From Xylographa opegraphella (taxonomy: Eukaryota): a stretch of DNA of 20,000 nt. This document shows positions 1-20,000 of the stretch, one piece after another; the first letter of the stretch is position 1; each line of letters starts with the position of its first letter. Under the pieces are notes generated by a model that searched no databases, was not told the DNA's origin, and saw only the letters and a program-made list of their open reading frames with translations. The stretch is from positions 47,005 through 67,004 of the forward strand of contig JALDZX010000082.1 in NCBI GenBank assembly GCA_022813865.1. The letters run 5' to 3'. The translations under genes and the position numbers were made by a program.

Positions 1-2070
1 TTTTAAAAAAAGGCGATATCTTTGAGGAATCTCATATATAAAAATATAAACTTTGAATAGAATTTAAACCAGCAAACGAGCCTTTGGTATTTTAAAAGAA
101 AATTGTGCAGAACCATCAGTTTTAATAATATTTTAAATAAAAAAATCTGCAAGAATAATAATAAACGTATTAAATTTAACAATAAATATATACTTACTGT
201 AAATACATAATGTGACGGCTATGACATCAGTCACAGGTAATAGGGGTCCGGCTGGATCAGGACTAGCACCTTTAGTATATAGTCTCGCCCATGGAGCAGC
301 CACACCGCTTCTCCATCTTAATCTGGGTTGAAATCGTCCACCTAAAGCTTACGTTCTAGGCGTGCTTGTGTGGTGAGTTGATGAGCCGTAACACATAACG
401 GGAAATGGCACTTTATTATATATTATTTAAAAAAATTTACAAGTAAAATAGAACTATAATATTTACGATAAGAAATTACTCGTTATAATAGTATTTATTC
501 AGAATTAAAGAGTATATATAGAAAATTGCTTCGAGCTTATTATTAATATAAACTACAAAAACCTTTTGAGCTTTATAATAACTAAAGTACTTAATAGAAA
601 ATGAATAAGGTGGGTAGAACTTTTAGAACAATACAAATTCAAAATTGTATATATACCAGGCAAGGACAATAAAAGAGTAAATATATTTAATAAAAAAAAG
701 TTATAAATAAAAAACCAATAAACGAAGTATTGCTACGGAAAAATAACAGTAAAGTTTTTATTTTGCAAAATAAATTGCGGTTTTCGAAATAAAAGTAATT
801 GCTAAGAGTCTGATAAAATTATTACCCAAAGAAATAATTAAACATTATTACGAGAGTTTAGTAAATAAATATTTAGAATTTATCAAAATAATAGAACTTA
901 TAAAGAAAAACTACGAATTCCTAAATACAAGAAAATATATAAAAAATACATTAAAAATATATATCGTGTTAAAAGAATAAATCAGCAAAATACGCGGTAT
1001 ACGAAAATATTCAGTTTTTAACTATTTTAAAGCAATCATAGGAGTAAGTTTTAATTAACTTTTTTATAAAATTATTAAGGTTAGAAAATTTAGCTACAGA
1101 ATTAAAATACGACTCGATAATAGTATTTATAAATAAATTTATTAAATACTTTATAATTATATCTTTTAGGGAAACGTTTATAGCAGAATAATTAACTTTT
1201 TTTCTTTTAAAATAAATTAATAAAAGATTATAGTTTTGCAGCGAAAATAACGTTTAATAAAAATATATTGTTTACATCGAATTTTTAAAAAACTTTAATA
1301 TTTAAAAAATATTAATCGTTTACTATCTATTAATAGATAATTAAATAGAAAGAATAAACCAAAATTTGAAAGTATATTTAAAGCATTTTATTAATTTCAA
1401 GCAAGACAATTGGGTATTTTTATTATTTTTTAAATAATTGGTATTAAACGATAAACAGTCTGCAACAACAGAATTCTCGCTATTTTTCGCAAATAAAAGC
1501 CATTATTTCGAGTTGTTTAGAAAAAAGAAACCAAGACTTAATAATAATAAAATAATAATATTAGTCAAGGATATAAAAGATACGCACAAAACGCTATTAA
1601 TAAAAATTAAATAAAACAATAATAAAATTACTGCTGCAAATACAGTAATAAAATAATGAATCTTAGCTTAAAAAAAGGGGATAAAGTATATTTTTTTACA
1701 AAGAAATTCACAATTAGCAGGAATCGAAGCAAGAAACTCGATTATATTTAGATTAAACTATTTTTAATTAGACAAAATGAAAAATCAATTAACTACCTTT
1801 TTAATCTGCCAAAAACGCAAGAATATACCTAGTATTTTATATTTTTCGATTAAAATCAGCGAACGCGAGTACTATATTAGAAATAATATTTAAATATAAT
1901 AAAAAAAGAACAGGAATTCGAAGTAAAAAAAATTCTGAATAAGCAAAATCATGAATTATGTAGTCAAATAAAAGAAATATTTAAAATTAAATAATACTTA
2001 AAAATTACTTACTAGCCTTGGGAACTGCCAGGAGCTTTTTCGACAATATTATCAAGTAGAGTTAAAATTT
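1..2070 (+). pseudogene. pol remnant of family A copy 1 (RNase H, integrase, chromodomain); many RIP stops; interrupted by a solo LTR
   Basis: De-RIPed motifs: GKWHP.AYYS (~398-430), NY.I.DKELL (~451-482), Y.PGKDN (~650-670), NQ.LE.YL and KQDNWV (~1357-1416), LGNCQELLRQYY (~2017-2052). End is approximate. Confidence 0.85.
211..393. mobile_element. Solo LTR, 183 bp, GC-rich and apparently not RIPed
   Basis: Termini TGTGACGGCT...AGCCGTAACA (9/10 inverted match). Perfect 5-bp TSD CATAA at 206-210 and 394-398. The homologous empty site is in copy 2 near 13930-13955. Confidence 0.93.
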
Positions 2071-2515
2071 TAAAAAAAACCTTTTAAAGTTTTAGAAGAA
2101 AAAAAAAAAAAACTTCGAAAAAATCGTTAATAATAACGTTCGCCTCTCGACGTTCATTATTTTCCAAAGCTTCGATATTAAATATTTTACACTGAAATAT
2201 TTCCCGTTTCTTACTTTTAATATTTAAAAGCCGACGCTTTTCACGATCAAGGGCTTTTTTTAATTTAATTATTTATTATTTTATTTTACTCTTTCATTTC
2301 TTTAAGTTACGACGATCGGCCTCGATAATAATTAAAAAGCAACGAGTTTTAGCGGCAATATAATTTACGTAAAACTTCGATTTCGACGAGATTTCGTAAA
2401 TTAAATATTTTTTAATACAGCGATCGTAAGGATGCATCGTAAACTTTCTTTTGTTACGAATATTATGTGATTCAATTTTTTGGCAATAAACGTTAGATAA
2501 TTTATATTTTGATAT
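2012..2515 (-). pseudogene. Antisense extra ORF of family A copy 1: Zn2Cys6-like cluster plus coiled coil (168 codons, RIP-disrupted)
   Basis: One frame from ATA (inferred ATG) at 2515 to TAG at 2014-2012. Reads MHP[Y]DRCIKKYLI[Y]EISSKSKF[Y]VN[Y]IAAKTRC...EADRR...ALDREKRRLL...IEALE...APGSSQG*. Bracketed Tyr codons (TAC/TAT) are one G>A change from Cys. Confidence 0.75.
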
Positions 2516-2571
2516 AATACAAGTAAACTGCTAAAAAAAATTGAAAGTAAAAATCTGGCGAAGAAAGCTAG

Positions 2572-2933
2572 TAATAAAACTCTGGTTAATATTATATAAA
2601 ATAAAAATCGAAGGAACTTTATTTCGAATACCTTTTTTGCCTTCTCAGAAAATATAAAAGGCATGACTCTTTTGCCTTAAATGCCTTTTTCGGGAGGTAT
2701 AAAAATATTTTAAAATAGAGCTTTTATATAAAATAAAGAGTTTCCTTTATTATAAAAAACGTGTTTAATTTATATAATAATCTTAAATTAATGGATTTTA
2801 ATATAAATACTGTACGAAAATTATTATATTTTGAAAAATAATAAGCCTATTACTATACTCTTTTATTCATTTATTGACGAATTCAATTTGAATCCCTAAT
2901 CGAATTATACTAATGAAAAGCAGAATCGTAAAA
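2572..2933 (+). repeat. 3' LTR of family A copy 1 (~362 bp)
   Basis: Follows a PPT-like GGCGAAGAAAG. Aligns along its length with the reverse complements of 11378-11738 and 17253-17608. Confidence 0.85.
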
Positions 2934-3215
2934 TGAAAATTTAAATTAACGAGTATTATTCGTAAATATATATTAACGCTGTAACTTTACGAATATTGAA
3001 CGTAATTGAAAATTTTAAGTGAATTCGTATTTTTTACGTAAAATTAGTTTAATTACGTATTTATACTATTTACATAAATTTAGTGAACAATTTGCTTAAA
3101 AAAATTTAAAATTAACTTTTGCTTAATTTTTATGTATTTTCAATTATTTTGAAATATGTTTTTAAGCAAATTATTTATTTTAAAATAATCTTTTAATTTT
3201 TTAATTTAATAAAAA

Positions 3216-3540
3216 TGTTGCTAAAAATGCTGAACGAGTTAAACCTATTAAATACGTAAAAAGTAAATTTTTGGTATACAAAATTTAAAATTTTTATATT
3301 ATTTCTACAGATTTGGTTATTGCGCAAAAATTATATTTTTTGATCGAATTTCCGTTTTTTATTAATATTATTATGAAACGAGCGCTTGATTACAGAATTT
3401 ATAATTTATAATAATATAAAAAAATTGAATTGTAATTATGAAAGGAAACTTCAGGTATATATTAACTCGTTAATATATAAACAGAGCAAAAAAAGAGAAA
3501 TATAAATTAAATTCAAGTTTAAAACTTACAATTCGTAATA
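3216..3540 (-). repeat. 3' LTR of family B copy 1 (~325 bp)
   Basis: Starts TATTACG (RIPed form of TGTCACG) after a RIPed PPT and ends ...AGCAACA. Aligns with the LTR starting at 19278. The left boundary is less certain. Confidence 0.7.
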
Positions 3541-3699
3541 AATTTTTTTGATCAAAAAAAATAAATATTTACGCTAAATCAAATATATATATATAAATAT
3601 AAATATATTTAAATTATTTTTTTATAATCGACCCCTTTCTTCGCTGATATTGATACGTTAATATTTGATTTTTTATCGATTTTAAAAAATTTCGATCAG

Positions 3700-5278
3700 G
3701 CGTATCGAACATATATTTTTTTATATTTTTATTATAATCCTTAATAAATTTGTGTATCTCGCTTTAAATTTTTTTGAATTATTTATTATATTTTGCCTCG
3801 TATTTTTTTACCTAATTAAAATTTTTACGATAAATCTTTTAGCAAATACATTTTTTTCGCTTATTTAATAATCGGTTTAATTCAAAGAAATGATTCTCGT
3901 AATCGTTAATGTATACCGCCGCAGATTAATCGAGAATAAATTTATAATAAGAATCGAACTTTAAATTTAATGCAAAATTAGACTATATAATTATAAAAAT
4001 TCAATCAACTTTTTAATTTATAAAAAACTCGAATTAATATATTGATTATGTAGTCTTTTTTTTAAAAAGTTAAAAAATTCTGCGTATCAAAAGAAAAGTT
4101 TTTTATTAAAAGCGATGGAAATATTATATTTTTTATATAAAAAATTATCGCGTAATCGTTTAATAATAAAAAAATTCCGAAATATTTTTTTATCGTAGTA
4201 TTTTTTTTATTGATATATTCGTAAAAGTTATTATTTTTAATTTTATATTTTATATCGCTAAAAGTTATACGTCGTTTTTTTATCGTCAGAATTTATTAAA
4301 AGGTTCGTTAAATTTAATATATCAAATTTTTTATTTAAATGTATTTCTTGCGTAATTTTGTTAGCGAATTTCGTAATAAACAAACTTATTAAAATATTAA
4401 ACGTTGTTTATAAAATTAAGAAGAGATTCGATTAATTCTGAAATATTTTTAACTTTACGATTATATATCGTAAAATTATTTTAATAGTTTACTTAATTTC
4501 TTTTAACTAATCGTCGATTTAAGGGTAATATACAATAAAAAATAATAATTTTACTTTTAAAATTCGAAAACAACGTTTTTTTAGATTTCGACAAAATTTC
4601 TTTATTTTTATTCAAAAATATAACTTTCGAAATAAATTATGTAACGATTTAAAAATATATTAAAAGATTTTTGATTTAATTTTCTGCCGTATAGATAATA
4701 TTCCTTTTTGATATTATAAAAAAACTTTTACTAAATTCATAAACTGTAATAAGGCAGCAATCGTATTTCTATTAAAATTATCTAAAAATGAGAATAAAAA
4801 TTATTATTACGCAGTAATGAAAAATATCGAATATCAAAATTTATTAAAGATTTTTTTAAAATTTATATCGTTTAATACAATTCTTAATACATAATTATTA
4901 ATATTCAATATATATTTTAAAATAATATTCGAGTTAACAAATATTTAAAGAAATCGTGATTTTTTATAAATACAATAATATTCAAAATAATCGTATATGT
5001 CGTACGTTATATATAATACGTTTTTTATTAAATTATATAAAATATATAATTATTTTCGGCTATTATTAAAGTCTATTAAATAAAAATACTCGTTACTTTT
5101 TTCGTACGGGAAAAATACCGCGTATATATTTGAAATATTATTTTTATAAATTTTTTCAAAATTTTACGTTAACGAATATCGCTTTCGTATTTAATAATAA
5201 ATTTAATTTCGAAGTTAAATAATATTTGTATTATAATCGCTTAATAGTTATATAGGCAGTTAAATTTATTATAAAATT
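3700..5278 (-). pseudogene. Integrase plus chromodomain remnant of family B copy 1
   Basis: De-RIPed motifs: YI.HC..C (~4890-4915), GYDCCL (~4750-4770), STAYHPQTDGQSE (~4500-4540), QYAGPF-like (~4070-4090), LIRWKGYG..HD.W (~3780-3820). Boundaries are approximate. Confidence 0.8.
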
Positions 5279-5478
5279 AATTGAAATAAATAAATGGAAT
5301 CAATATGGTGGAAACAGTGCTTTATTGAACTATTTATCAAAATGCGTAAAAAGATTACTTTTTTCTTAAAAAAGAAGGCTTTTTTACATACGATTACGCT
5401 AGTTTAAAAGTAAATAAACGTTTATATTATGTTTAAATAATATAAAAAATATTTTGTCAGGCAACGTTATGTTTAATA
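5279..5478 (-). repeat. Copia 3' LTR (200 bp)
   Basis: Direct repeat of 10765-10961, e.g. shared CGCTAGTTTAAAAG, TTTTGT.A..CAACGTTA and TTTATTGAA. Confidence 0.85.
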
Positions 5479-5509
5479 TTTTTATTTAATATTTATTAAA
5501 TCATTAGCT

Positions 5510-8500
5510 TTTATTACTTTTAAAATTTAATTAAGTAATAAATTTTCTAAAGTTAAATTTAAGCAGCGATTTAATTAACTCGTTTGCAATTATATTTTAT
5601 ATAAATACGATATTATTTTAATTTTAATTCTTTTAATAAAGATCTTTAATAAATTAATAAACAACGTTAATATACTTCGATTTTTCGTAAATACAAATAT
5701 TTCTAATCAGCGTTAATAATGTTGAATTATTTTTTTAGTTGCGTTGACGAATTTTTTTAATATTAATTATTTTTTACAATATTAATACTATTTAAATTGA
5801 TATTTAAATATTTACTACAGTCGAGGTTTTCAAATAATTATATAATTTAAAAATTTTTTTTCGCGCAGCTCCACAGAGCTATATATTTAATTTTAATAAT
5901 TAAAATAAATATTAGTTTTTATTTTTAATTTATTTGAATAATAAGTTTTTTATTATTAAATATATATACGTATTTAAAGATACATCTTCGATTTCACTTA
6001 TTTATCGCGTAATTAAAATTAAAAAAGTTCATTAAAATAAATCTTTTACCATTTTTATAAGTTATTTCAAAGTTAATCGTTAATCGAAGGTAATAAAGTT
6101 AGCTTTTTAATACGTAATTATAATATTTCTTAAAGTTACTCAAGTATTAATTTAATTTTTTAAGGCAAAGGCGATATTAAAATACGTATCTATAATTATA
6201 TATATTAAACTTTTAATTACGTATTGATATTCGTTTTAGTTAATTTTCTTTATTTTTAAAATCGGCTGATTAAAACGAGTCGTAATTATTTATTAAAACT
6301 TTTACTATTTTATATTTATTCATTTTTAGCTATAATTTTACGAAAACTTTTTTATATAATAAATATAATTTAAACAAATTAAATAGTTATTTTTATCGCG
6401 CTTAATTTAAATATCGAATTCTTTTTAATTTTAAATTTTTTATAAATATAATTTTAAATTCATCAACTCTAACTCGACGCGATTACTGCGATTTTAATAT
6501 TATTTAAATAGAAAAATAATTCAATTTTTTTTAAAAATAAATTAATAAATAAAGATTGATATTATATTACTTGAAATTAATTCGCTCGAAATTTTAAATA
6601 TAATATTTATATTAATTATAAATTATTTATTTAAAATTGTAAAAGTTTTATTAAAAATTTAAATAATATTTTAACTTGATTTTAATCCTCGATAAAAACA
6701 ATGTATAAAACCTTTTTAAAAAAAAATTAAATAAAAACGTTCTTAACGTTTATTTAATCATATTTTAAATTTTTTGTAACGATTAACGCGAAAAAGAGGC
6801 GAAACGTATTTTATCTTGTCGTAAAAATAAATATACTTTCGTAGTTTACGTTGTATTTTAAACAAAAAATATACCACGATACGGGCCTTAAATTTATTTA
6901 ATAAATTATTGATATAAAATTTTAGTTTAAATATTTATTTATTTATAACGATATCCTCGCCTTTTAATAAAACTGGTTTTAAATTTTGTTTAATACGAAT
7001 ACGAAAATTTTCTCGTTTATAATTTTTTTAAATTTTTTATTAAATATCGTTAATCGCTTTTTTATATATTAACGAAATAAAAACGATATTCAATATTATA
7101 ATTAATACGACATTTTTATTGTTTTTCGCTAAAACGCTAATTATATTATATTATCAAATTTTTTCCTCGATTTGAAATGATAAATTCTTTAAATTAATCT
7201 AAAATATTTTTGTTACTTTTAAATGTTAATTGATAACATTTATTTCGTCGAATTTTCTTTTAAAATTAGAAAAACAATTTTTAAATGATAAAATTTATTA
7301 AAATTAAAGCGGAAAAGGTTTAAAATAATTGATTATTATTAGAATTAATTTTATTAAATTCCTTTTTAAATAATTGAGTAACAAAAATTTCGAAGATTAA
7401 TAACGCGTTTTAAATACTTTAAATATTAAAACGTTTTGCTTAAAAATCATTATATATGAAAAATTTAATTATTAACAAAAAAGTTTTTTACATAAACGAA
7501 AACTTTTATTCAACAAAATTTTAAAGTAATTAATTATTTAAATTTATTACGAATTTAAAGATTTTTTTAAAAAAATTTCAACAAATCTTATTTGATTAGT
7601 ACGATATTTAGATTATTTGTAAATAGTATACAAATTTTTTATAAAAACTTTAATAAACAAAATATTTATAATTTGTTTTAAGTTAAAAGTTTAAAATTAA
7701 TTAATTTTTCGAATATATTTTTCTTGAATTTTACCGCGTGATTTTTAATAACACGCTAAGAATTCAATATCTATAAACGTTATTATTTATAAATTTTCTT
7801 AACGTATTTTATAAATAACTTTATACGACCGCGCGATATAAATCTTTTTAATTTTTTTTAAAATTATTAATTTTAAACCGACGTAAAAATAATTCTGAAA
7901 TTTTGAAATTTTGATATACTCAATATTACAAGTAGTATTTATTGAATTTTTTCTAAACAATATTAACTTGCCGTTAATTATAATTTCAATATCGATTTAA
8001 TTTTTTAAATAAATATGAATTAATTTAATTTTCATTTAAAATTTAATAAACATTCAATATTTTTTAAATATAACGCGTATTAAGTTTTTCGAGGTTTATA
8101 TCAATTGTTCGACAACGCTATTTTATGTTACGAAATAGTTTCAATACTTATTCCTTAATCGTTTAAATTAAATCTAAATTTAAACACGTTGTTATTATAT
8201 AAATTACTATAAATTTTCTTTAAAATTCAAAACTCAAAATTAATTTTTATTTATTTAATTTGAAAATCGCGTTTAATTTTATTTTAGCAACATATTTTAA
8301 TTTTTTTAGAATAATTATTTACGATAAAAAAATAGCTTTCGCGAAATGATAACTGGGCTTCATATAAATTCATTAAAATTAAAGGGAAATTTTTAATTTT
8401 ACGTTTATTTACGACGTAATTTTTTAAATTTTATTACTTTAAAATAACGTAAATTTCGTAAATATTGTTATTATTTTATAAAACGACGATTGATTTTTAG

Positions 8501-10720
8501 ATTTTAATTATTTTTTATAAAATTTTTATTTTAGCGTATTTTTGAGACGCAAAACGATGATATTGAACAATATATTTTATGTTTTTAATTATATCATTTT
8601 TAAATGACGTAAATTTCTTTTATTTAAACGCAAAATATATATGATTAACGAGCAATTCAAATTTTCTTTAATTAAATATAAAAATATTGATCAATTTAAA
8701 AAATTTAACCGTTTTTATACTTTAAATAAATAATACACCCTCGGTTTTACTGGGAGTAAAAATAATAAAAACGAAGTTATTGAACTTTTTTGCTATTTTT
8801 TAATAATATATATGCTATTTCTTTTACGAATAATAACTATTTATTTTATATTGTAATTGTATATATATAATTTTTTCTATTAAAATTATTATATAAACCT
8901 TTTTCGTATATTCCTTTGCCAGGAAGAAATTTAATATTAAAATTAAAAATATAAAAATATAGAAAATTAAAACTAAAATTAGTTTATGATCTTTTTCATT
9001 TCCTATAATAATTGTACTAGTGTATTTGGTATATAATTTTTCATTTCTAAATTCTATTCGGCGTTTTTCTATTTTAATTGAAATTTTAGGAAAAATTTTA
9101 AATTAATTAATTGTGTAAAAAAGCGCCAAAATTAGCTGTTTAATTAAATTTAAAATTTCTATTAATATAGGCCTTTAAGAAACGGCGATTTTAATTGTTT
9201 CATTTTTTATATTAATTTCAAAATTCGTTAATTTATAATTATTTGATTAAATTTTTAGCGTTATATTCGCGATGGTTTTTACTTAGATTGTTTTATAAAT
9301 TTCTTTTATTTTTATCGATAATTTTATTATTAAATAACTTATGTATTTAAAATAGCTATTTAAACGTTTCGTATTAATTTAGTTTTTTAACAAAAAAGAG
9401 TTAATTATAGTTTATTAAGCGATATTTTTTAATAAAAAAATATTTATTGAATTTATTACAGCGAAACTTCGATCGTTCGAGGTTAAATAATTTTTTTTAA
9501 TAATAAACATTGTTATTTTTATTCTTTTTTCCCGATGTTCTGTTTGCTTTAAAACGCGATATTATTTAAAATTTCAAAATTGTTTTTTTTAATAATTTAA
9601 TAATTTTTCTTTTAACGTTGCAGATTTCTCATGCGTTAAAATTATTTTTAATTATTTTATATTTTTTAAAAAATAAATAAGAAAAATAGCTAAAAAACTT
9701 TAATAGTATTAAAAATAATCGTTAATACAAACTTTGCCGCTGTAATTTATTTTTTTAATTTTTTTTAAATATATTTAAACTTTTTTTAATCATGATCGAG
9801 TTCAATTTTTTATAATTAATAAAACCATTTATTATTCATTAATTTATTAGTAAAGAAAATACGTATATTTAAGTTTTAACAAATCTTATTTATTTTTAAT
9901 CATAAAAAGTTTTTATACGCGTTTTTAATCAATATTATTAATATAAATAATTATTTAATAGTATATATTTATGTTATTTTGAATTTATTTATCGTTATTA
10001 AATATAATAACAAAATTTAAATTGTTTCTTAAAAATTCAATATTAAAATAGTTAAATTATGAATTAAAATGGCATTCGAGTTTATAAAAATAATTATAAC
10101 GTAAGCGTTAAATATTTGCTTAATGATATAAAATATTTATTTGAATATAAAATAATTTTAGCGAGAATAAATTATAAAAAATAATTCGTTTTTATTAATC
10201 AAAGAAAAGAGCGTTTAAAACTACAAAATTCGATAAAGTTTATCGCGACAGATTTTTTATAAAAAATTTTATAATACAATATCGCTTGTTAAATTTCGAT
10301 TTATTTATAAATTAATCGAAACAGAATTTTTTCAAAATAATATAAAATTCGACTCGCGACGAAAGAAAAAACATTATTAAAATAAAATATTTATTATCGT
10401 ATTAAATTTTTAATAAAAACATATATATCTTAATTTCGCGTTATTAACTGCCGCGAATGTCGTAAGCTTCCGAGTTATAAAAATTTTCTTTATTTCTTCA
10501 AAGGCGCGTAATAATGGCCGCGAATATATATATATATTTATTTTTATGAAAAAATCGCGTAATAAATAATCGCAGGGTTTATTTATTTCTTTTAAACGTG
10601 TAATAAAAATCGTTTAATATATAATTAATTTATTTTTATCGTAAAAAACGCATAGTATATAATGAAAATATTTATTAACATTAAATCTCGTCGCAAACTA
10701 CGGAGTATAAAACTATTTTA
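5510..10720 (-). pseudogene. Copia gag-pol remnant
   Basis: RT motifs W.FKLK...KFKARIV (~6870-6940) and DVKNAF (~6735-6750); TRPDIAFA-like (~6165-6190). RNase H motifs EYIALWSCAK (~5858-5890), SKHIDV (~5660-5680) and ADGLTK (~5570-5590). Integrase-like region at about 7800-8400. Ends are approximate. Confidence 0.85.
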
Positions 10721-10750
10721 TATAATTAATTATTTTAATCGTTGCGCGAA

Positions 10751-10764
10751 CGCGGGTTATAACC
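10751..10764 (-). promoter_or_regulatory. Putative primer-binding site of the copia element
   Basis: GGTTATAACCCGCG on -, immediately inside the 5' LTR. Resembles the GGTTATGxGCCC start common in fungal copia internal regions. Confidence 0.6.
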
Positions 10765-10961
10765 AATTGAGATAAATAAATAAAATTAGTATAATAAAAT
10801 TAATATTTTATTGAATAATTTATTAAATACGTAAAAAGGTTGTTTTCTCTTTTAAAAAAAGCTTTTTTATATACGACTTCGCTAGTTTAAAAGCAAATTA
10901 ATATTTATATTGCCTTCAAGCAATATAAAGGGCATTTTGTTAAACAACGTTAGTTTCAATA
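10765..10961 (-). repeat. Copia 5' LTR (197 bp)
   Basis: Direct repeat of 5279-5478. Begins TATTGAAAC on - (RIPed form of TGTTG). Confidence 0.85.
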
Positions 10962-10982
10962 AAATTAATTATAATTATTACG

Positions 10983-11213
10983 TGTAACGGCGTGTTACAT
11001 GGCACCTTAACAAGTGATAGACGGAACGGGACTAAAGCGCGTCCGGGACTCAGCCTAGTTCGAAAGCGGTTAGGAGTCTTGGCGTTAGCACTGTTTATTT
11101 TAACTTCTACGTGTATTACTAAACTTGCTTCCTTATATTATTCTAGGTTGAAATCGCTCACCTATAGCTGTGGTTCTAGGCCTGCTTTTCTGGTGAGATA
11201 GCGAGCCGTAACA
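10983..11213. mobile_element. Solo LTR, 231 bp, GC-rich, related to the solo LTR at 211-393
   Basis: Termini TGTAACGGC...GCCGTAACA. Perfect TSD TTACG at 10978-10982 and 11214-11218. The last ~70 bp align with 326-393. Confidence 0.93.
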
Positions 11214-11377
11214 TTACGCGTATTATCGTTTTCAAATTTAAAAATAATATTTAATATAATATAAAATTGATCGGGTTTATATTGATAATAAATTTAAACA
11301 TTTAAAAAATATTTTAAAATTTCAACGGGTTGTAAATTAAGAAATTTCAATATTTATAATTAATAAATTAATTTAAA

Positions 11378-11738
11378 TATTACGATTCTGCTTCTCATTA
11401 GTATAGTTCGATTAAGATCTGAGTTGAATTCGTTAATAAATAAACAAAAAAGTATAGTAATAAATTAATTGTTTTTCAAGAGTAATAGTTTTCGTACAGT
11501 ATTACATTAAAGTCTATTAATTTAAAATTATAATATAAGTTAAATACGCCTTTTACAATTCAGGAAATCCTTTATTTTATATAAAAGTTTTATTTTAAAA
11601 TACCTTTTATGCCTCCCGAAAAAACCATTAAGGCAGAGAGAGGTCATGCCTTTTATACCTTTTAAGAAGGCAGAGAAAGCATTCGAAATAAAGTTCCTCC
11701 GACCTTTATTCCATACAATATTAATCAGAACTTTATTA
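11378..11738 (-). repeat. 3' LTR of family A copy 2 (361 bp)
   Basis: Direct repeat of 17253-17608 and inverted repeat of 2572-2933. Confidence 0.88.
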
Positions 11739-11742
11739 CTAG

Positions 11743-11753
11743 TTTCCCCCGCC
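11743..11753 (-). promoter_or_regulatory. Polypurine tract of family A copy 2
   Basis: GGCGGGGGAAA on -, 4 nt upstream of the 3' LTR. Confidence 0.7.
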
Positions 11754-11795
11754 AGATTCTTGCTTTTAAAAGAATTTTAGTAGTTTTTTTATATT

Positions 11796-12304
11796 ATATC
11801 AAAATATAATCTATCCAGCGTTTACCGTCGAAAGACTCAATCGCACAGCATTCGTAATAAACTTTTTTTATGATATACCCTTGCGATCGCTGTATTAAAG
11901 AATATTTAATTTACGAAATTTTTTCGAAATCAAAGTTTTACGTAAATTATATTATCGTTTAAATTTATTGCTTTTTGATTATGATCGAGGCCGATCGTCG
12001 TGATTTAAAGAAACGAAAAAAATAAAATAAAACGCCGAATAATTAAATTAAAAAAGGCCCGTAATCGTAAAAAACGTCAACTTTTAAATATTAAAAATAA
12101 AAAACGAAAAATAATTCAGCGTAAAATATTTATCATTGAAATTCTAAAAAATTATAAACGTTAAAAGGCGAAAACTTTTACCAACGATTTCTTCGAGATC
12201 TCTTCTTTTTCTTTTTTTCTTTTTAAAACTTTAAAAACTTTTTTTAAATTTTAACTCTGTTTAATAATACTGTTAAAAAGGCTTTTAATAGTTTCCAAGG
12301 TTAG
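11796..12304 (+). pseudogene. Antisense extra ORF of family A copy 2: Zn2Cys6-like cluster plus coiled coil (RIP-disrupted, small frameshifts)
   Basis: 11879-11971 reads PCDRCIKEYLI[Y]EIFSKSKF[Y]VN[Y]IIV*IYC, with Cys1, Cys2 and Cys6 intact. It continues MIEADRRDLKKRK and ends QG* at 12304. Confidence 0.75.
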
Positions 12305-15300
12305 TAAATAATTTTTAGATATTATCTAACTTTAAGTATTTCTTTTATTTAACTAAATAATTCTGACTTTGCTTATCCAGAATTTTCTTTATTTTAAATT
12401 CTTATTCTTCTTTCTTGTTATATTAAAAGACTATTTATAATAAAGTATTTACGTCTGCTGGTTTCAACAAAAAGATATAAAATACTAGGTATATTCTCGC
12501 ATTTTTTGGCAGGTCAAAAAAGTAATTAATTAATTCTTTAACTTGCTTAATTAAAAATAATCCGACTTTAATATAATCAAGTTTTCTGCTTCGATTTTTG
12601 CTAGTTACTGAATTTTTCGTAAAAAAAAATATTTTATTCCCCTGTTTAAGCTAAGGTTTATTCTTTTTATTATTATATTTTATAATAATTACTTTATTGT
12701 TATTTTATTAAATTCTTTTCGATAACGCTTCGTGCGTATTTTTTAAGTCATTGATTAATATTATTGCTCTATTAATATTAAATCCTGGCCTTTTTCAAAA
12801 ATAATTCTGAATGTCGTTTCGTATTTACGAAAAAGGGCGATATTTTTATTATTATAAATTGTTTGTCGTTCAGTGCCAATTGTCCCAAAGGCAACAGTAA
12901 TACCCAATTATTTTGTTTGGAATTAATAAATTATTGTAAATACACTTTCAAACTTTGGTTTATTCTTTTTATTCAATTATTTATTTATAAATAATAAACG
13001 ATTAATATTTAATTTGACTTTTAATTCAGACATTAAAGTTTTTTTAAAAGGTTTAATATAAACAGTTTATTTTTATTGAACATTATTTCTGCTAAAAATC
13101 TATGATTTTTATTAGGCTGTTCAACAGGAGGAAAATTAATTATTTTACTATGAATAAATTTTTTTAAAAAATACGATAATAAAGTAATTGGTAAATTTAT
13201 TTATAAGTACTATTATCGAATTATATTTTAATTTTGTAGTTAAATTTTTTAATTTTAGTAATTTTCCAATAAAGTCAATCGATATTTATTTTTATAATTT
13301 CTTTGAAATATTCGAAAATAAAATGATTCCGTATACTGTATGTCTTGTTGACTTATTTTTTAATATAATACGTATTTCTTGATATATTCCTTTACATGCT
13401 TTTTTATATTTCGGGAATTTATAGTTCTTTTTATAAATTCTATTGTTTTAAAAACTCCTGGGTGGCTATTCGTTGATTTATCGTAATAATATTTATTTAT
13501 TTTTTCTAATGACAGTTTTTTTTTTAAATTTTTTGCAATCGCTTATGTTTCGAAAGCTGCGATTTATTTTGCAGAAATAAGAGCTTTACTGCTATTCTTG
13601 CATAATAATACTTTATTTATTGGTTCTTTGTTTATTAAATCTTTTTTTCTGCTAAATATATTCAGTTTTTCATTGTCTTTGCCTGGTATATATATAATTT
13701 TGAATTTAAACTGCCCTAAAAGTTCTGCTTATTTTATTTATTTTTTAAAGCACTTTCGTCGTAGTAAAACTTAATAAATTTTTATAATCTATATAAATAG
13801 TAAATTTTAAGCAACTTTCTGTATACACTTTTCATAATAAAATAAATACTATTATAACGAGTAATTCCTTGTCGTGAATATCATAGTTTTATTCTATTAA
13901 TAATATTCTTTAGTAATGTACAATAGGGTGCTATTTCCTATTTTAAATTTACAGTAAATATATATTTATAGTTAAATTTAATGCGTTTGTTTTTATTCTC
14001 GCAGGTTTTTTTAACCTAAAACGTTATTAAAACTGGTAGTTTTATATAAGCTTTTTTCAAAATATTAAAAGCTCGTTTTTGGTTCGACTTCTATTTAAAA
14101 TTTCAATTTTTATATATTGAATTTGTTTGGTTCGACTTCTATTTAAAATTTCAATTTTTATATATTGAATTTGTTAAAAATATCACTTTTTTTATGTAAT
14201 TTTTAATGAAAAGTTCTATTAAAATTTGTAAATTGTAGAAATCTTAAGATCTTTTCTGTTATTATTAATTAAGGCCGTTTAAGTATAGTTCGTATTTTTT
14301 CTAAATTTGTTTTAATTTCGGTTTTGCTAATTATAAATTTTAGAAAGACTATTTCGTTCTTATTGTATTTAAATTTTTCTGATTTAAACAGCAACTTCGC
14401 TTTTTTTTAGATATATAAGTACTTTTTATATATATTTGATATATTCTTTTGCTAATTTCGAGTAAATAAATATATCGTTTAAATAAATTAATATCGTTAA
14501 ATCCAAATATGTTCTTATTACGTTGTGAATTAATATTTAGCAATTAATTAATATATATTAATTTTAAGGGCATAATTCAATACTGGTAGTATTTATATTT
14601 GTTTTGGAATACTATTTTTTAATCCGCGTTTTTTTTTTAATTAAATCATATACGCCCCTAAAGTTAAATTTGGTAAAATATTTTACTCTATTAAATTTAT
14701 TTCGTATTTCGCTGATTTTCGGTAGCGAATATCGATTTTTAATAATAATATCGTTAAATTTTTTATAATTAATATAAGATTTCAAGCTTTCGTTTTTTTA
14801 AATATAAATATTACGGGATATTTTACCGAGGATTTTGATTCTTTTATAAATTTCTTTTTAGGCTTTTATAAATATATTTACGAAACTCCCGAAGTTCTTT
14901 TTCTAACATATTATATATAAGTTTAAATGTTGGCTTTTCCCCTGGTTTCAAATTAATCTCGCAATTTTAAGGTTAATATTTAGATAAGGCGTTAAGCTCT
15001 TTCTTTTTCTTTTTAAAAAAATCATGTTTACGCTTTATACTTTTTAGAGATATTAAGAAATACGTTGCTTTTTTTAAATTTTGATTTAATTTGTTTCACT
15101 AACCCTTGCTGATACGTATCGAGTCGAACCTTTAAGTAAAATATTTTTAGTTAAAAATAAAATTTTATTATCTCGATCGATTTTCGATTTTTTATTTATT
15201 TATTACCGTTCTTTATTCATATATAAAATATATATTAATAACGCGGTTTATATACTTTTTGATAAATATTTTTTTATTTTAATTTAAAAATACGTTGTAC

Positions 15301-17230: not shown

Positions 17231-17252
17231 CTTATTTTAAAAATATTTAAAA

Positions 17253-17608
17253 TATTACGATTTTGTTTTTAAATAAAAGAATTTAATCAGAAATTTAGGT
17301 TGAATTCGTTAATAAATAATTTTTTTTAATAATAAGTTAATCGTTCTTTAAAAGTAATACTTTTCGTACAGTATTATATTAAAGTTTATCAATTTAAGAC
17401 TATAATATGAGTTGAATACGTCTTTTACAATCAAGAAAATTCTTTACTTTATATTAAAAATTTATTTTAAAATACCTTCCATGCCTCTCGAGGAGGCTAC
17501 AGAGGTAAAGAAATCATGCCTCCCATGCCTTCTGAGGAGGCAGAGGAGGCATTCGGAATCGGGTTCCCCCGACCCTTGTTCCACACAACATTGATCAGAA
17601 TCTTATCA
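17253..17608 (-). repeat. 5' LTR of family A copy 2 (356 bp)
   Basis: Starts TGATAAG on - with the TG intact. Direct repeat of 11378-11738. The part at 17480-17608 keeps its ancestral GC. Confidence 0.88.
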
Positions 17609-19628
17609 CGAGTTACTGTTTTTACAGATTAAACTCAGCATTTTTTCGCAAAAAATCTTCAATTATTCTTTAAATTTTTTTATTCACTTTATGAACATCA
17701 ACACGGTTGTCATGTTCAATAAATAACGTGGTTTTTTTTTCAAAAAAAAAACCCTCAATTTGCATTATTAAAAACTTTTTTAGTAGAATTTTATGTACTT
17801 ACCGTGATTTTTTTAATCGAAAATAATGCAATAATTCGAGCTTACTTTCGTTTCGAAGCCTTCATCGACATTGATTATTAATTCGTTCGATACGTTTTAT
17901 TGTTTTTAAAAATTTCGTTAAATGGGTTACGATTAATAACGTTAAATTTACTAATTTTTAATTTAATCGTTTCGATCTAATTAATTTTATCGGCCTATTT
18001 TAAGTAATACGGGCAAAATCTCTAAAAATTCTGATTTAAAATTAAAACTAAGCAGTTAACAAAGTAATTTTTAAATTCGACGTAAAAAAAATTATCGAGG
18101 TCGTTTTATATTTATTATTAATATTTTTATAAAAAATCAATATCGAGAGAATTTTTACTGTAAACTTTAATTTTTTACGAATTTTACTATTTTTATTAAT
18201 AGCCAATTAATTATTCGTAACAAAAAATAATTCGAAAACTTAAACGCATTTAAAGCCCTTGATACTTTAAAAGGTTAAAAAAAATAAACGATAATAATTA
18301 TTAAAGTACTGAATTTAATAAGGCCTAGTGGGAAAGTCTTTAAAAATTAATGATTTAATATATATAAACCTCTGCTTTATTGAAATTTTCTGATCCCCCC
18401 GATTCGTTTGATTTAACTGGTTAAAATGGTCAAGACGATAAAGGCGAAATTAAAAATTACTAAAAATCGCTAAAAATCGATTTATTTTATTTAAATATGT
18501 TAATAAAATAAGGCGAAAAAACATTATTAATAAAAATTTAAAAAATTATTATGAAAATATTTATAATTTTATAAATCGATTACGTATTGTAACAAGCATT
18601 AAAAATGCAGTAGAAATACGATAAAATTTAAATATATACTTTCGTGGCGAGGTCGAACTATAGTGAAATATTTAATCTAGCAAAATTATAAAACTCGATT
18701 TAATAACTTATTTGAATAGCGTAAAAGAATTTTATAAAAATTTTTAAGCGACGTTTTTGATCGTTTTCGAGCGAAGTTTTTAATAAATACGTTAATACGC
18801 GTTGTATAATTTACTCGATTTTTACGATCATATAGGTTAATTTTCTATTAAATTTAAAATTAAATTTTTATTATAAATTTATTTCCGATCAGCCTGCAGC
18901 GATATATACTAATAGTTACGAAAATAAATTCTTAAAATAAAATTGATTATTGAATAAACGGGAAAAAATACTCCGTAAAAAACCCATCGTAAAATTTTCA
19001 TCAGGTGGAAGAGATACGAAATAAAATATAATAAATAATTAAAAAAAATTTTTAAACGAGACGCGAAAGTTTATTAACAATTATAATAAAACTATTAAAA
19101 AATATACACTCGATACGCCTGGTCGAAAGCTTTTAAAATCGATTAAAAAAGAATATTAGCGTATTAATACCAGCGAAACAAAAGGGGTCGTTTAAGAAAA
19201 ATAACCTGAACGTATTTATATTTGCATACAAATTTTGTCAAGCGTAAACGCTAGATTTTTTTTTAATTGAGGGGACTTGTCACGGGTCCTGAGTTCTGAA
19301 CCTAATTTAATCTGTGTTTCCCTTTTTTTGCTCTGTTTATAAATTTTAACGAGTCATTATATATATAGCTGAACCTTTATTTCATAATTATAATTCAGCT
19401 TTTTTACAGCATTATAAATCATAAATTCTGTAATTAAACGTTCACCTCACATTGAAAGATTATGAAAAGTAAAATCAAAATTAATATTAATATTAAAATC
19501 GTTTTTAGTTACTTATTCGAATTCGATTATTTAATTAAATTTATTAAATTTTATACTTTTAAAGAATATTATATATTTTGCATATTTTCAATATACATAT
19601 TTAAAATTCGGGATTTCAGCTCGCTCAG
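17609..19628 (+). mobile_element. Family B chromovirus copy 2, internally deleted: 5' region and gag N-part joined to integrase tail and chromodomain, then PPT and truncated 3' LTR
   Basis: Gag-like F.NRLR...IRQNLD.CLRGE.E.WW (~18570-18666, de-RIPed). Chromodomain IRWK.Y at 19000-19017. 18810-19628 is homologous to 3230-3995 (-). Confidence 0.7.
19278..19628 (+). repeat. 3' LTR of family B copy 2, cut off about 15 bp before its expected end
   Basis: Begins TGTCACGGG directly after PPT-like GAGGGGACT (19269-19277). Aligns with 3216-3540 (-) up to CTCGCTCAG. Confidence 0.75.
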
Positions 19629-19657: not shown

Positions 19658-20000
19658 AAATATAGAATATAAAATATAGAATATAAAATATAGAATATAA
19701 AATATAGAATATAAAATATAGAATATAAAATATAGAATATAAAATATAGAATATAAAATATAGAATATAAAATATAGAATATAAAATATAGAATATAAAA
19801 TATAGAATATAAAATATAGAATATAAAATATAGAANNNNNNNNNNNNNNNNNNNNNNNNNNNNNNNNNNNNNNNNNNNNNNNNNNNNNNNNNNNNNNATA
19901 TAGAATATAAAATATAGAATATAAAATATAGAATATAAAATATAGAATATAAAATATAGAACATAAAATATAGAATATAAAATATAGAATATAAAATATA
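19658..20000. repeat. Tandem array (AAATATAGAATATA)n, a 14-bp dimer of 7-mers, spanning an N gap at 19836-19897
   Basis: Directly visible near-perfect periodicity, with one variant unit (AACATAA) at about 19961. Confidence 0.97.

Follow-up and report, generated by a model that had tools for sequence, protein, structure and literature searches.

A degraded antisense gene with a six-cysteine module, lying next to the 3' LTR of a Ty3/gypsy element in Xylographa opegraphella

The DNA analyzed here is a stretch of 20,000 nucleotides from Xylographa opegraphella (assembly GCA_022813865.1, contig JALDZX010000082.1, positions 47,005 to 67,004 of the forward strand), referred to in the following as the window, in which a Ty3/gypsy retrotransposon (element A) carries an additional antisense open reading frame (aORF) between the 3' end of pol and the putative polypurine tract (PPT) with the adjoining 3' long terminal repeat (LTR). 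Read overall, positions 11796-12304 of the plus strand represent, with a probability of about 80%, a dead copy (copy A) of a genuine extra gene of this Ty3/gypsy family. The gene is real, conserved, and borne by a transposable element in this genome, while the two copies in the window, copy A and one in a second family member (copy B), are inactive relics that show the marks of repeat-induced point mutation (RIP). A real coding gene antisense to gag-pol in this place had been put forward in the original prediction, made from the letters of the window, and the stop counts, the HMMER search, and the reverse tblastn searches described below uphold it. The coordinates of all features are collected in Table 1.

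The aORF is common to both family copies in the window, the second of which is inverted relative to element A (34-2941) and 76% identical to it across 2.6 kb. In copy B, the aORF frame has 4 stops in 167 codons, compared to 7-22 in the other five frames and to the 10.9-14.6 that the base composition predicts. A composite of the two copies, which takes the less mutated base at each transition and was made for viewing only, has 1 stop in the aORF frame versus 6-15 elsewhere. Copy A contains 8 stops, as counted in the nominal 11796 frame, and two frameshifts, near 11857 and near 12015, its N-terminal part and its tail lying in the 11796 frame and its Cys part in the 11798 frame. The sense-strand frames across the same span have 6-13 stops each; they are closed, and the conservation of the aORF is therefore not a shadow of pol. 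Outside the window, the aORF is also present in diverged contigs of the sequencing run X1 (at least 3 records), which cover 11643-12140, while tblastn found no third copy inside the window.

The present searches show that the degraded frame has relatives among known proteins. With the read-through translation of copy B as the HMMER query against a database of 1,835,955,588 representative proteins, and with a cut-off of E ≤ 0.001, four proteins were obtained, three of which were retained as relatives: P0002 (166 amino acids, E = 4e-11), P0003 (177 amino acids, E = 4.8e-10), and P0005 (147 amino acids, E = 1.4e-6). When searched back onto the window with tblastn, they returned to the aORF with E values of 3e-26, 1e-21, and 1e-12, respectively, residues 3-177 of P0003 aligning to 2509..2021 of copy B; copy A was matched in two frames, and the rest of the window was unmatched. 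P0003 is not RIPed, has an ordinary composition and an open frame, and can be aligned over its whole length, Met and final residue included. Its layout is MHPCDRC-x6-C-x8-C-x2-C-x6-C, followed by LIITDADR, a basic run, a long helix, the stretch RKMF..FNIEALEEDER, and a tail that ends in APGSS. The fourth protein, P0004 (1277 amino acids, E = 1.2e-8), was considered as a relative and rejected; it is a repeat protein that has no Cys module and shares only a KIFNIE-like motif, which it holds five times. Its match, made through five TKIFNIEVLD-like stretches, is a spurious one that arises from the lysine-rich, low-complexity query.

Further searches for homologues added little to this set. A word-based search with the RIPed translation gave none, and one with P0003 gave only P0003 itself; such searches overlook relatives below about 50% identity, and P0005 was not recovered from P0003. 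A profile of four sequences returned the same three proteins (P0002, P0003, and P0005) and no others. The 598 pattern matches of the profile in metagenome contigs and the 118 in viral contigs yielded 0 confirmed cases. In the ESM Atlas, P0003 falls with clusters of Ascomycota labeled 'hypothetical protein' at 0.95, with no Pfam family, which we take as a lead only; for the Cys part, for which only named clusters were compared, the best value is 0.79, again with no Pfam family.

The end points of the gene given in the original prediction, 11796 and 12304, are exact in the alignment to P0003. The first codon, ATA, stands opposite Met1 of P0003; the residues that align with the C-terminus of this protein (the APGSS-like end) are directly followed by a TAG (12302-12304). 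The ATA is most simply explained, judging from the aligned codons, as a former ATG changed by a RIP-type G-to-A mutation in a TpG context. The distance from this start to the edge of the LTR (11744), which had been placed at about 57 bp, measures about 51 nt. With the start so near to the LTR edge, the antisense mRNA must begin in the 3' LTR, in the short gap, or outside the element. At the other end, the aORF shares its final ~19 codons, in antisense, with the pol tail. The pol stop at about 12246 was transferred from copy B and is uncertain, the two copies differing there by a 2-nt indel.

The six Cys positions are the most conspicuous part of the aORF. The codons in copy A are as originally described, namely, TGC at 11882, TGT at 11891, TAC at 11912, TAC at 11939, TAT at 11948, and TGC at 11969, which spell C-x2-C-x6-Y-x8-Y-x2-Y-x6-C. 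The spacing is the same in copies A and B and in P0003, while P0005 has x7 before the last Cys. Across the six columns in five sequences (P0003, P0005, P0002, copy A, and copy B), the 30 residues are 18 Cys and 12 Tyr, with 0 others. P0003 has Cys in 6/6 positions, P0005 in 5/6, copy A in 3/6, and P0002 and copy B in 2/6 each, the remainder being Tyr. Cys1 is encoded by TGC in copy A and is replaced by TAC in copy B, giving a direct TGC/TAC difference inside the window. RIP prefers the change of G to A in a TpG context. The three Tyr of copy A stand at Cys positions and are best read, on the codons and the alignment, as mutated Cys, because P0003 has Cys there and a TAY codon arises from TGY by a single G-to-A step within TpG. 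The proposal that the Tyr residues at positions 3-5 are former Cys thus finds support in the un-RIPed P0003, and in columns that hold nothing other than Cys and Tyr; Tyr or His at these positions in a less damaged relative, or a closed frame, would have spoken against it, and P0003 has Cys at all three and an open frame.

Other differences between the copies are in keeping with the same type of damage. Among the 142 substitutions that separate copies A and B, 118 are transitions, and transitions account for 165 of the 211 variable positions in run X1, from which 37 pieces were aligned, 31 of them less than 90% alike. Of two further sequencing runs, X2 covered only 12422-12470 and X3 gave no aligned piece. 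The window as a whole is strongly AT-rich, with 11-31% GC per 500 nt, and its RIP-type dinucleotide indices are 1.04 for TpA/ApT and 0.74 for (CpA+TpG)/(ApC+GpT). The Cys module of copy A holds one in-frame TAA at 11960; this triplet (11960-11962) is AAA (Lys) in copy B (2350-2348) and in three contigs of run X1. The T/A difference at 11960 is a transversion and therefore not a RIP change.

Downstream of the Cys module, the original prediction had pointed to a charged, coiled-coil-like run, and a basic stretch is indeed found there, followed by a long helix for which pairing is predicted. Of the quoted residues, EADRRDLKKRK is literally present in copy A, while DREKRRLL and IEALE are literal in copy B and read NRKKRQLL and IEILK in copy A. 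In the AlphaFold2 (AF2) model of P0003, the helix spans residues 65-142 with a predicted local distance difference test (pLDDT) score above 90. The net charge of P0003 is +12 at residues 63-100 and -8 at residues 101-145. Within the helix, the family members differ in length by 7, 14, and 21 residues, that is, by whole heptads, which is what a constrained coiled coil would show.

A homodimer prediction, calculated for two copies of residues 27-146 of P0003 with four Zn, scores 0.47 as compared to 0.23 for the best control. In a calibration that contained no ligand, this mark was reached by 21 of 30 solved same-chain pairs and by 0 of 23 single chains (17/29 and 0/30, respectively, for eukaryotes). 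The contacts agree between runs to 100%, with a partner pLDDT of at least 80, and they are antiparallel (78-110, 92-96, and 74-113), such that the basic half of one helix lies on the acidic half of the other. In this predicted dimer, each Cys module touches the conserved C-terminal RKMF..FNIEAL stretch of the partner, and the heptad indels fall at the dyad. A monomeric hairpin would fit the same pattern of contacts and indels. The models thus favor, on balance, a helix that pairs in an antiparallel manner, its basic half facing an acidic half that may belong to a second chain or, in a hairpin, to the same one.

The nature of the Cys module requires a closer examination. The module probably binds zinc, and the question is to which family of zinc proteins it would belong. 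The Zn(II)2Cys6 pattern of fungal transcription factors is C-x2-C-x6-C-x5-12-C-x2-C-x6-8-C, and in members of the Gal4 family the segment from Cys2 to Cys3 contains basic residues and a Pro stands just ahead of Cys4; their fold has a two-fold helix-strand layout around two zinc ions, they bind CGG-type DNA sites, their dimerizing coiled coil is parallel, and the family has a middle homology region. The spacing in P0003 lies within this pattern, with a CDRC start, and as in Gal4-type factors, a linker leads from the six Cys to a helix that pairs. In the AF2 model of the module alone, a short helix begins directly behind Cys1 and another lies at Cys4, and both lead into an extended stretch, which resembles the Gal4 helix-strand layout. 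The one row that Foldseek retrieved with the module alone is likewise a Zn2Cys6 factor, Pho7 in complex with DNA (6e33_A), at a level that is not significant (E = 6.0, probability 0.04, TM score 0.29); VIA-align, in both its wide and PDB versions, gave no match at Z ≥ 2. A protein that truly belonged to the Gal4-type family, taken over from a transcription factor of the host and binding DNA (e.g., the LTR) through its zinc cluster as a dimer, would account for the similarities. We nevertheless regard such membership, which had been suggested in the original prediction, as unlikely, and it is not established by the searches. With P0003, the Pfam family Zn_clus (PF00172) reaches 11.5 bits (E = 0.33), below its gathering cut-off of 21 bits, which is also the outcome of the HMMER check against Zn_clus that the prediction had called for. 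The alignment is moreover out of register, residues 27-44 of P0003 falling on positions 16-34 of the model and the first Cys triad on the model's second half. For P0002, P0005, and four translations of the window, Zn_clus gave no match at E ≤ 10, and the raw window translations gave no match to Pfam at this level either. The Cys2-Cys3 segments (IEKGLV, IRRGIL, and IKNKLF) hold only one or two basic residues, and the inter-Cys part is acidic or neutral; the residue before Cys4 is Y, K, or F and never Pro, and the net charge of the module in P0003 is -2. A search of the PDB sequences with the family profile gave no Zn2Cys6 chain at E ≤ 10, only coiled-coil-like rows with E ≥ 0.18. In addition, the chains of the predicted dimer run antiparallel rather than parallel, and the proteins of the aORF family are transposon-encoded, only 147-177 residues long, and devoid of the middle homology region.

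Zinc modules of another kind, such as a zinc ribbon or a cross-brace (ZZ-like) fold, were also considered; the protein would then act on RNA or on proteins, as a packaging factor or chaperone or as an adaptor of Gag or integrase, and not as a DNA-binding regulator. Two CxxC knuckles about 15 residues apart fit C4 ribbons as well, and in the AF2 model of whole P0003 residues 38-42 and 49-54 of the module are drawn as strands. The module itself is acidic, and the predicted pairing would engage the basic half of the helix with the acidic one; the single row obtained when the Cys part was searched against the PDB sequences is a CBP zinc finger, with a non-significant E value of 0.65. Against such a module stand the conservation of six Cys columns, where a C4 site needs four, the absence of a significant Pfam or PDB match to families of this type, and the low confidence of the models, and we consider it rather unlikely, if somewhat less so than Gal4-type membership. 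The searches with the whole P0003 model do not point to any particular fold: Foldseek gave no match at E ≤ 0.001, and VIA wide returned generic coiled coils only (residues 62-148, Z ≤ 7.4).

Antisense genes at this position are known from other retroelements. In passages of several papers, brtn is described as an additional antisense gene that Boty-like gypsy elements of Botrytis cinerea carry in the interval from pol to the 3' LTR (Zhao et al. 2011, Virology 417:248; PMC8365987, PMC7264820, PMC4227169, PMC5987419), present also in Sclerotinia and carried by elements whose Pol has a chromodomain (PMC8365987, PMC7264820, PMC4227169). A transcript from Monilinia is similar to both a truncated chromodomain part of Pol and BRTN, as stated in a passage of PMC5987419. 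The aORF shares with brtn of Boty its slot, its antisense orientation, and its setting in a fungal gypsy element, the Pol of Boty having a chromodomain, and the Monilinia Pol-BRTN transcript fits the near-abutting or overlapping layout of pol and the aORF in element A. The copies in the window are RIP-dead, and the likeness concerns position, orientation, and element type. Because slot, orientation, and element type are identical, our comparison somewhat favors the view that the aORF is a gene of the same kind as brtn and its probable homologue.

In plant retrotransposons, antisense open reading frames between pol and the 3' LTR (aORF-3R), with function unknown, occur in Grande1, RIRE2, Retand, and PvRetro13 and are conserved within families (PMC7264820); according to PMC4408406, some of them have a coiled coil, and the domains reported there are PMD/Tr28. 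The gene described here shares with aORF-3R the location between pol and the 3' LTR, the opposite strand, and the presence in several copies of the family, and it resembles them in within-family conservation. It differs from them in that they belong to plant hosts and mostly to non-chromovirus lineages and have PMD/Tr28 instead of a six-Cys module, and it is by these descriptions that the two are set apart. A further case is found outside the retrotransposons. HBZ of human T-cell leukemia virus type 1 (HTLV-1) is a bZIP factor whose gene lies on the antisense strand and is transcribed from the 3' LTR. The likeness of the aORF to HBZ lies in being an antisense retroelement gene beside the 3' LTR whose small product has a basic region and a coiled coil; unlike HBZ, the aORF family belongs to a fungal host, has the six-Cys module, and lacks a bZIP match, P0002, P0003, and P0005 giving none at E ≤ 10 with the Pfam bZIP models. 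The literature covered, in which the text of Zhao et al. 2011 itself was outside the scope, does not describe a further antisense gene in a fungal retrotransposon, nor does it link retrotransposon antisense genes to zinc clusters. The novelty that the original prediction had left open is thus divided: an antisense gene at this slot of a fungal chromodomain gypsy element is already in print as brtn, and the kind of gene is known through it, whereas the architecture of six Cys and helix and the intact relatives may be new.

It could also be envisaged that the aORF was acquired independently of brtn and represents a second family of fungal antisense retrotransposon genes. Such an origin would be consistent with the searches, which gave three unnamed singletons, none of them named BRTN, and with the plant elements, in which, according to passages of PMC7264820 and PMC4408406, several unrelated antisense open reading frames share this slot. 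On the other hand, slot, orientation, chromodomain gypsy type, and host at the phylum level (Ascomycota-like matches) are the same as for brtn; just one of the searches was sensitive, and its query was damaged by RIP, and the word-based ones do not reach relatives below about 50% identity. Independent acquisition is therefore possible but somewhat doubtful. The alternative that there is no gene at all, the frame having arisen by chance in AT-rich, RIPed DNA or mirroring the coding of pol on the other strand, has on its side that AT-rich DNA yields pseudo-peptides rich in Lys, Ile, Phe, and Tyr, that copy A is broken by its stops and frameshifts, and that its end overlaps pol. This alternative is refuted, as far as the evidence of sequence reaches, by the end-to-end homology to the un-RIPed, 177-residue P0003, with start and stop matching, by the closed sense-strand frames, and by E values of 4e-11 and 4.8e-10 in 1.84e9 proteins, which leave it a very small probability.

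A number of observations have to be weighed against the reading of the aORF as a dead copy of a brtn-like gene with a zinc-binding product. BRTN, if it is contained in the protein database, did not score at E ≤ 0.001 with the RIPed query. The rejected P0004 shows that a KIFNIE-like motif alone can score in such a search, and P0002, P0003, and P0005, which come from contigs of 361,890, 8,706, and 7,636 nt, are known as proteins alone, the retrotransposon setting being seen in the copies of this genome. No G variant was found at 11913, 11940, or 11949 among the 40 of 211 variant rows of run X1 that were listed. The models of the Cys module have a pLDDT of only 50-60 within the whole-protein AF2 model of P0003 and of 69 for the module alone, and the statements on zinc, on the dimer, and on function are all based on prediction.

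With these points in mind, the following picture of the gene can be proposed. The intact protein would have about 167-177 residues and consist of a short basic N-terminus, the module C-x2-C-x6-C-x8-C-x2-C-x6(7)-C, the LIITDADR turn, a strongly basic helix half and an acidic half, an RK(I/M)F-x4-FNI-x-AL motif, and a short tail. Copy A would have been killed by RIP-type C-to-T/G-to-A mutation together with the two frameshifts. The product may have been translated from an antisense transcript starting in or at the 3' LTR, and may have acted in the nucleus on the nucleic acid of the element itself, most likely on LTR-driven transcription; we put forward this combination of transcript and nuclear action only tentatively. 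The regulator or anti-silencing factor of the original prediction, with its transcription from the 3' LTR, likewise has the standing of a hypothesis. A more far-reaching and improbable scenario is that the brtn-type genes of ascomycete chromoviruses encode a very divergent, transposon-borne branch of the binuclear Zn2Cys6 cluster proteins with antiparallel pairing, which bind the LTR of their own element and balance sense and antisense transcription. If true, this would provide a fungal counterpart of HBZ and connect the Zn2Cys6 superfamily, which is specific to fungi, with mobile elements.

Irrespective of the function, the locus and P0003 together give the antisense gene a concrete architecture, i.e., a six-Cys module, a charge-complementary helix that varies by heptads, and a C-terminal motif, and P0003 provides an intact sequence suitable for expression. 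The value of the copies in the window, both being inactive, is comparative; they also show that RIP-dead copies can be decoded, Tyr in place of Cys being a readable signature of RIP.

Table 1. Features of element A and of the second family copy in the window (positions in the window; strand relative to the window).
Feature	Position	Strand	Details
3' LTR, element A	11365..11744	-	76% identity to 17240-17614 across 381 aligned columns
Putative polypurine tract	11745..11768	-	adjoins 3' LTR; sense strand ...AAAAGCAAGAATCTGGCGGGGGA
aORF copy A, RIP-degraded	11796..12304	+	~167 codons; end-to-end alignment to P0003 via copy B and the two-copy view
ATA at start codon position	11796..11798	+	aligned to Met1 of P0003; copy B likewise ATA at 2515-2513
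Six-cysteine module	11882..11971	+	TGC TGT TAC TAC TAT TGC; spacing x2, x6, x8, x2, x6
LI(I/V)(T/E)DADR turn, basic stretch, helix, RKIF...FNIEAL-type motif	11972..12149	+	copy A has RKIFIIEILK at 12120-12149
pol 3' end with chromodomain-like stretch	12246..12440	-	..KILDKQSQNYLVKxKKY.. in translations; motif judged by eye
Integrase_H2C2 (pol)	13375..13506	-	Pfam E = 4.5e-05; residues 1399-1442 of minus-strand read-through
RT_RNaseH (pol; reverse transcriptase-associated RNase H)	13742..14014	-	Pfam E = 1.1e-07, 32.3 bits; cut-off 24.8 bits
5' LTR, element A	17240..17614	-	partner of 11365-11744
pol part, copy B	34..2014	+	11370-13938 vs 2941-401, 76%; 13947-14117 vs 204-34; runs to window start
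aORF copy B	2015..2515	-	one continuous 167-codon frame; stops TGA, TAA, TAA, TAA
3' LTR, copy B	2568..2941	+	matches 17252-17612 and the beginning of 11370-13938

Element A, in which the aORF lies antisense to gag-pol, measures 6.2 kb and is bounded by LTRs in direct repeat, the pair being 5.9 kb apart. On the minus strand, read through many stops, the pol domains follow in the order RT_RNaseH and then Integrase_H2C2. On the basis of the LTR pair and of this domain order, element A is assigned to the Ty3/gypsy type, with the minus strand of the window as its sense strand. The ..KILDKQ..YLVKxKKY.. stretch in its pol tail is one that we take, by eye from the motif, to be chromodomain-like; Pfam Chromo gave no match at E ≤ 10 in the pol tails of the RIPed copies A and B.

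The longest open reading frame with an ATG near copy B, at 2401-2664 on the minus strand (87 amino acids), starts within the 3' LTR of copy B and enters the aORF in another frame, overlapping the N-terminal part of the true one; it is probably a chance frame. Elsewhere in the window, direct repeats at 5371-5493 and 10854-10976 are 75% alike and 5483 nt apart and may represent the LTRs of a further element degraded by RIP; a six-frame Pfam search over 2900-11400 gave nothing at E ≤ 0.01, and tblastn found no aORF copy in that region. Finally, a 14-nt unit (AAATATAGAATATA) is repeated in tandem at 19658-19835 and at 19898-20000, up to the end of the window, in a stretch of 11% GC; the first array has 12.7 copies (100% match) and the second 7.4 (97%).

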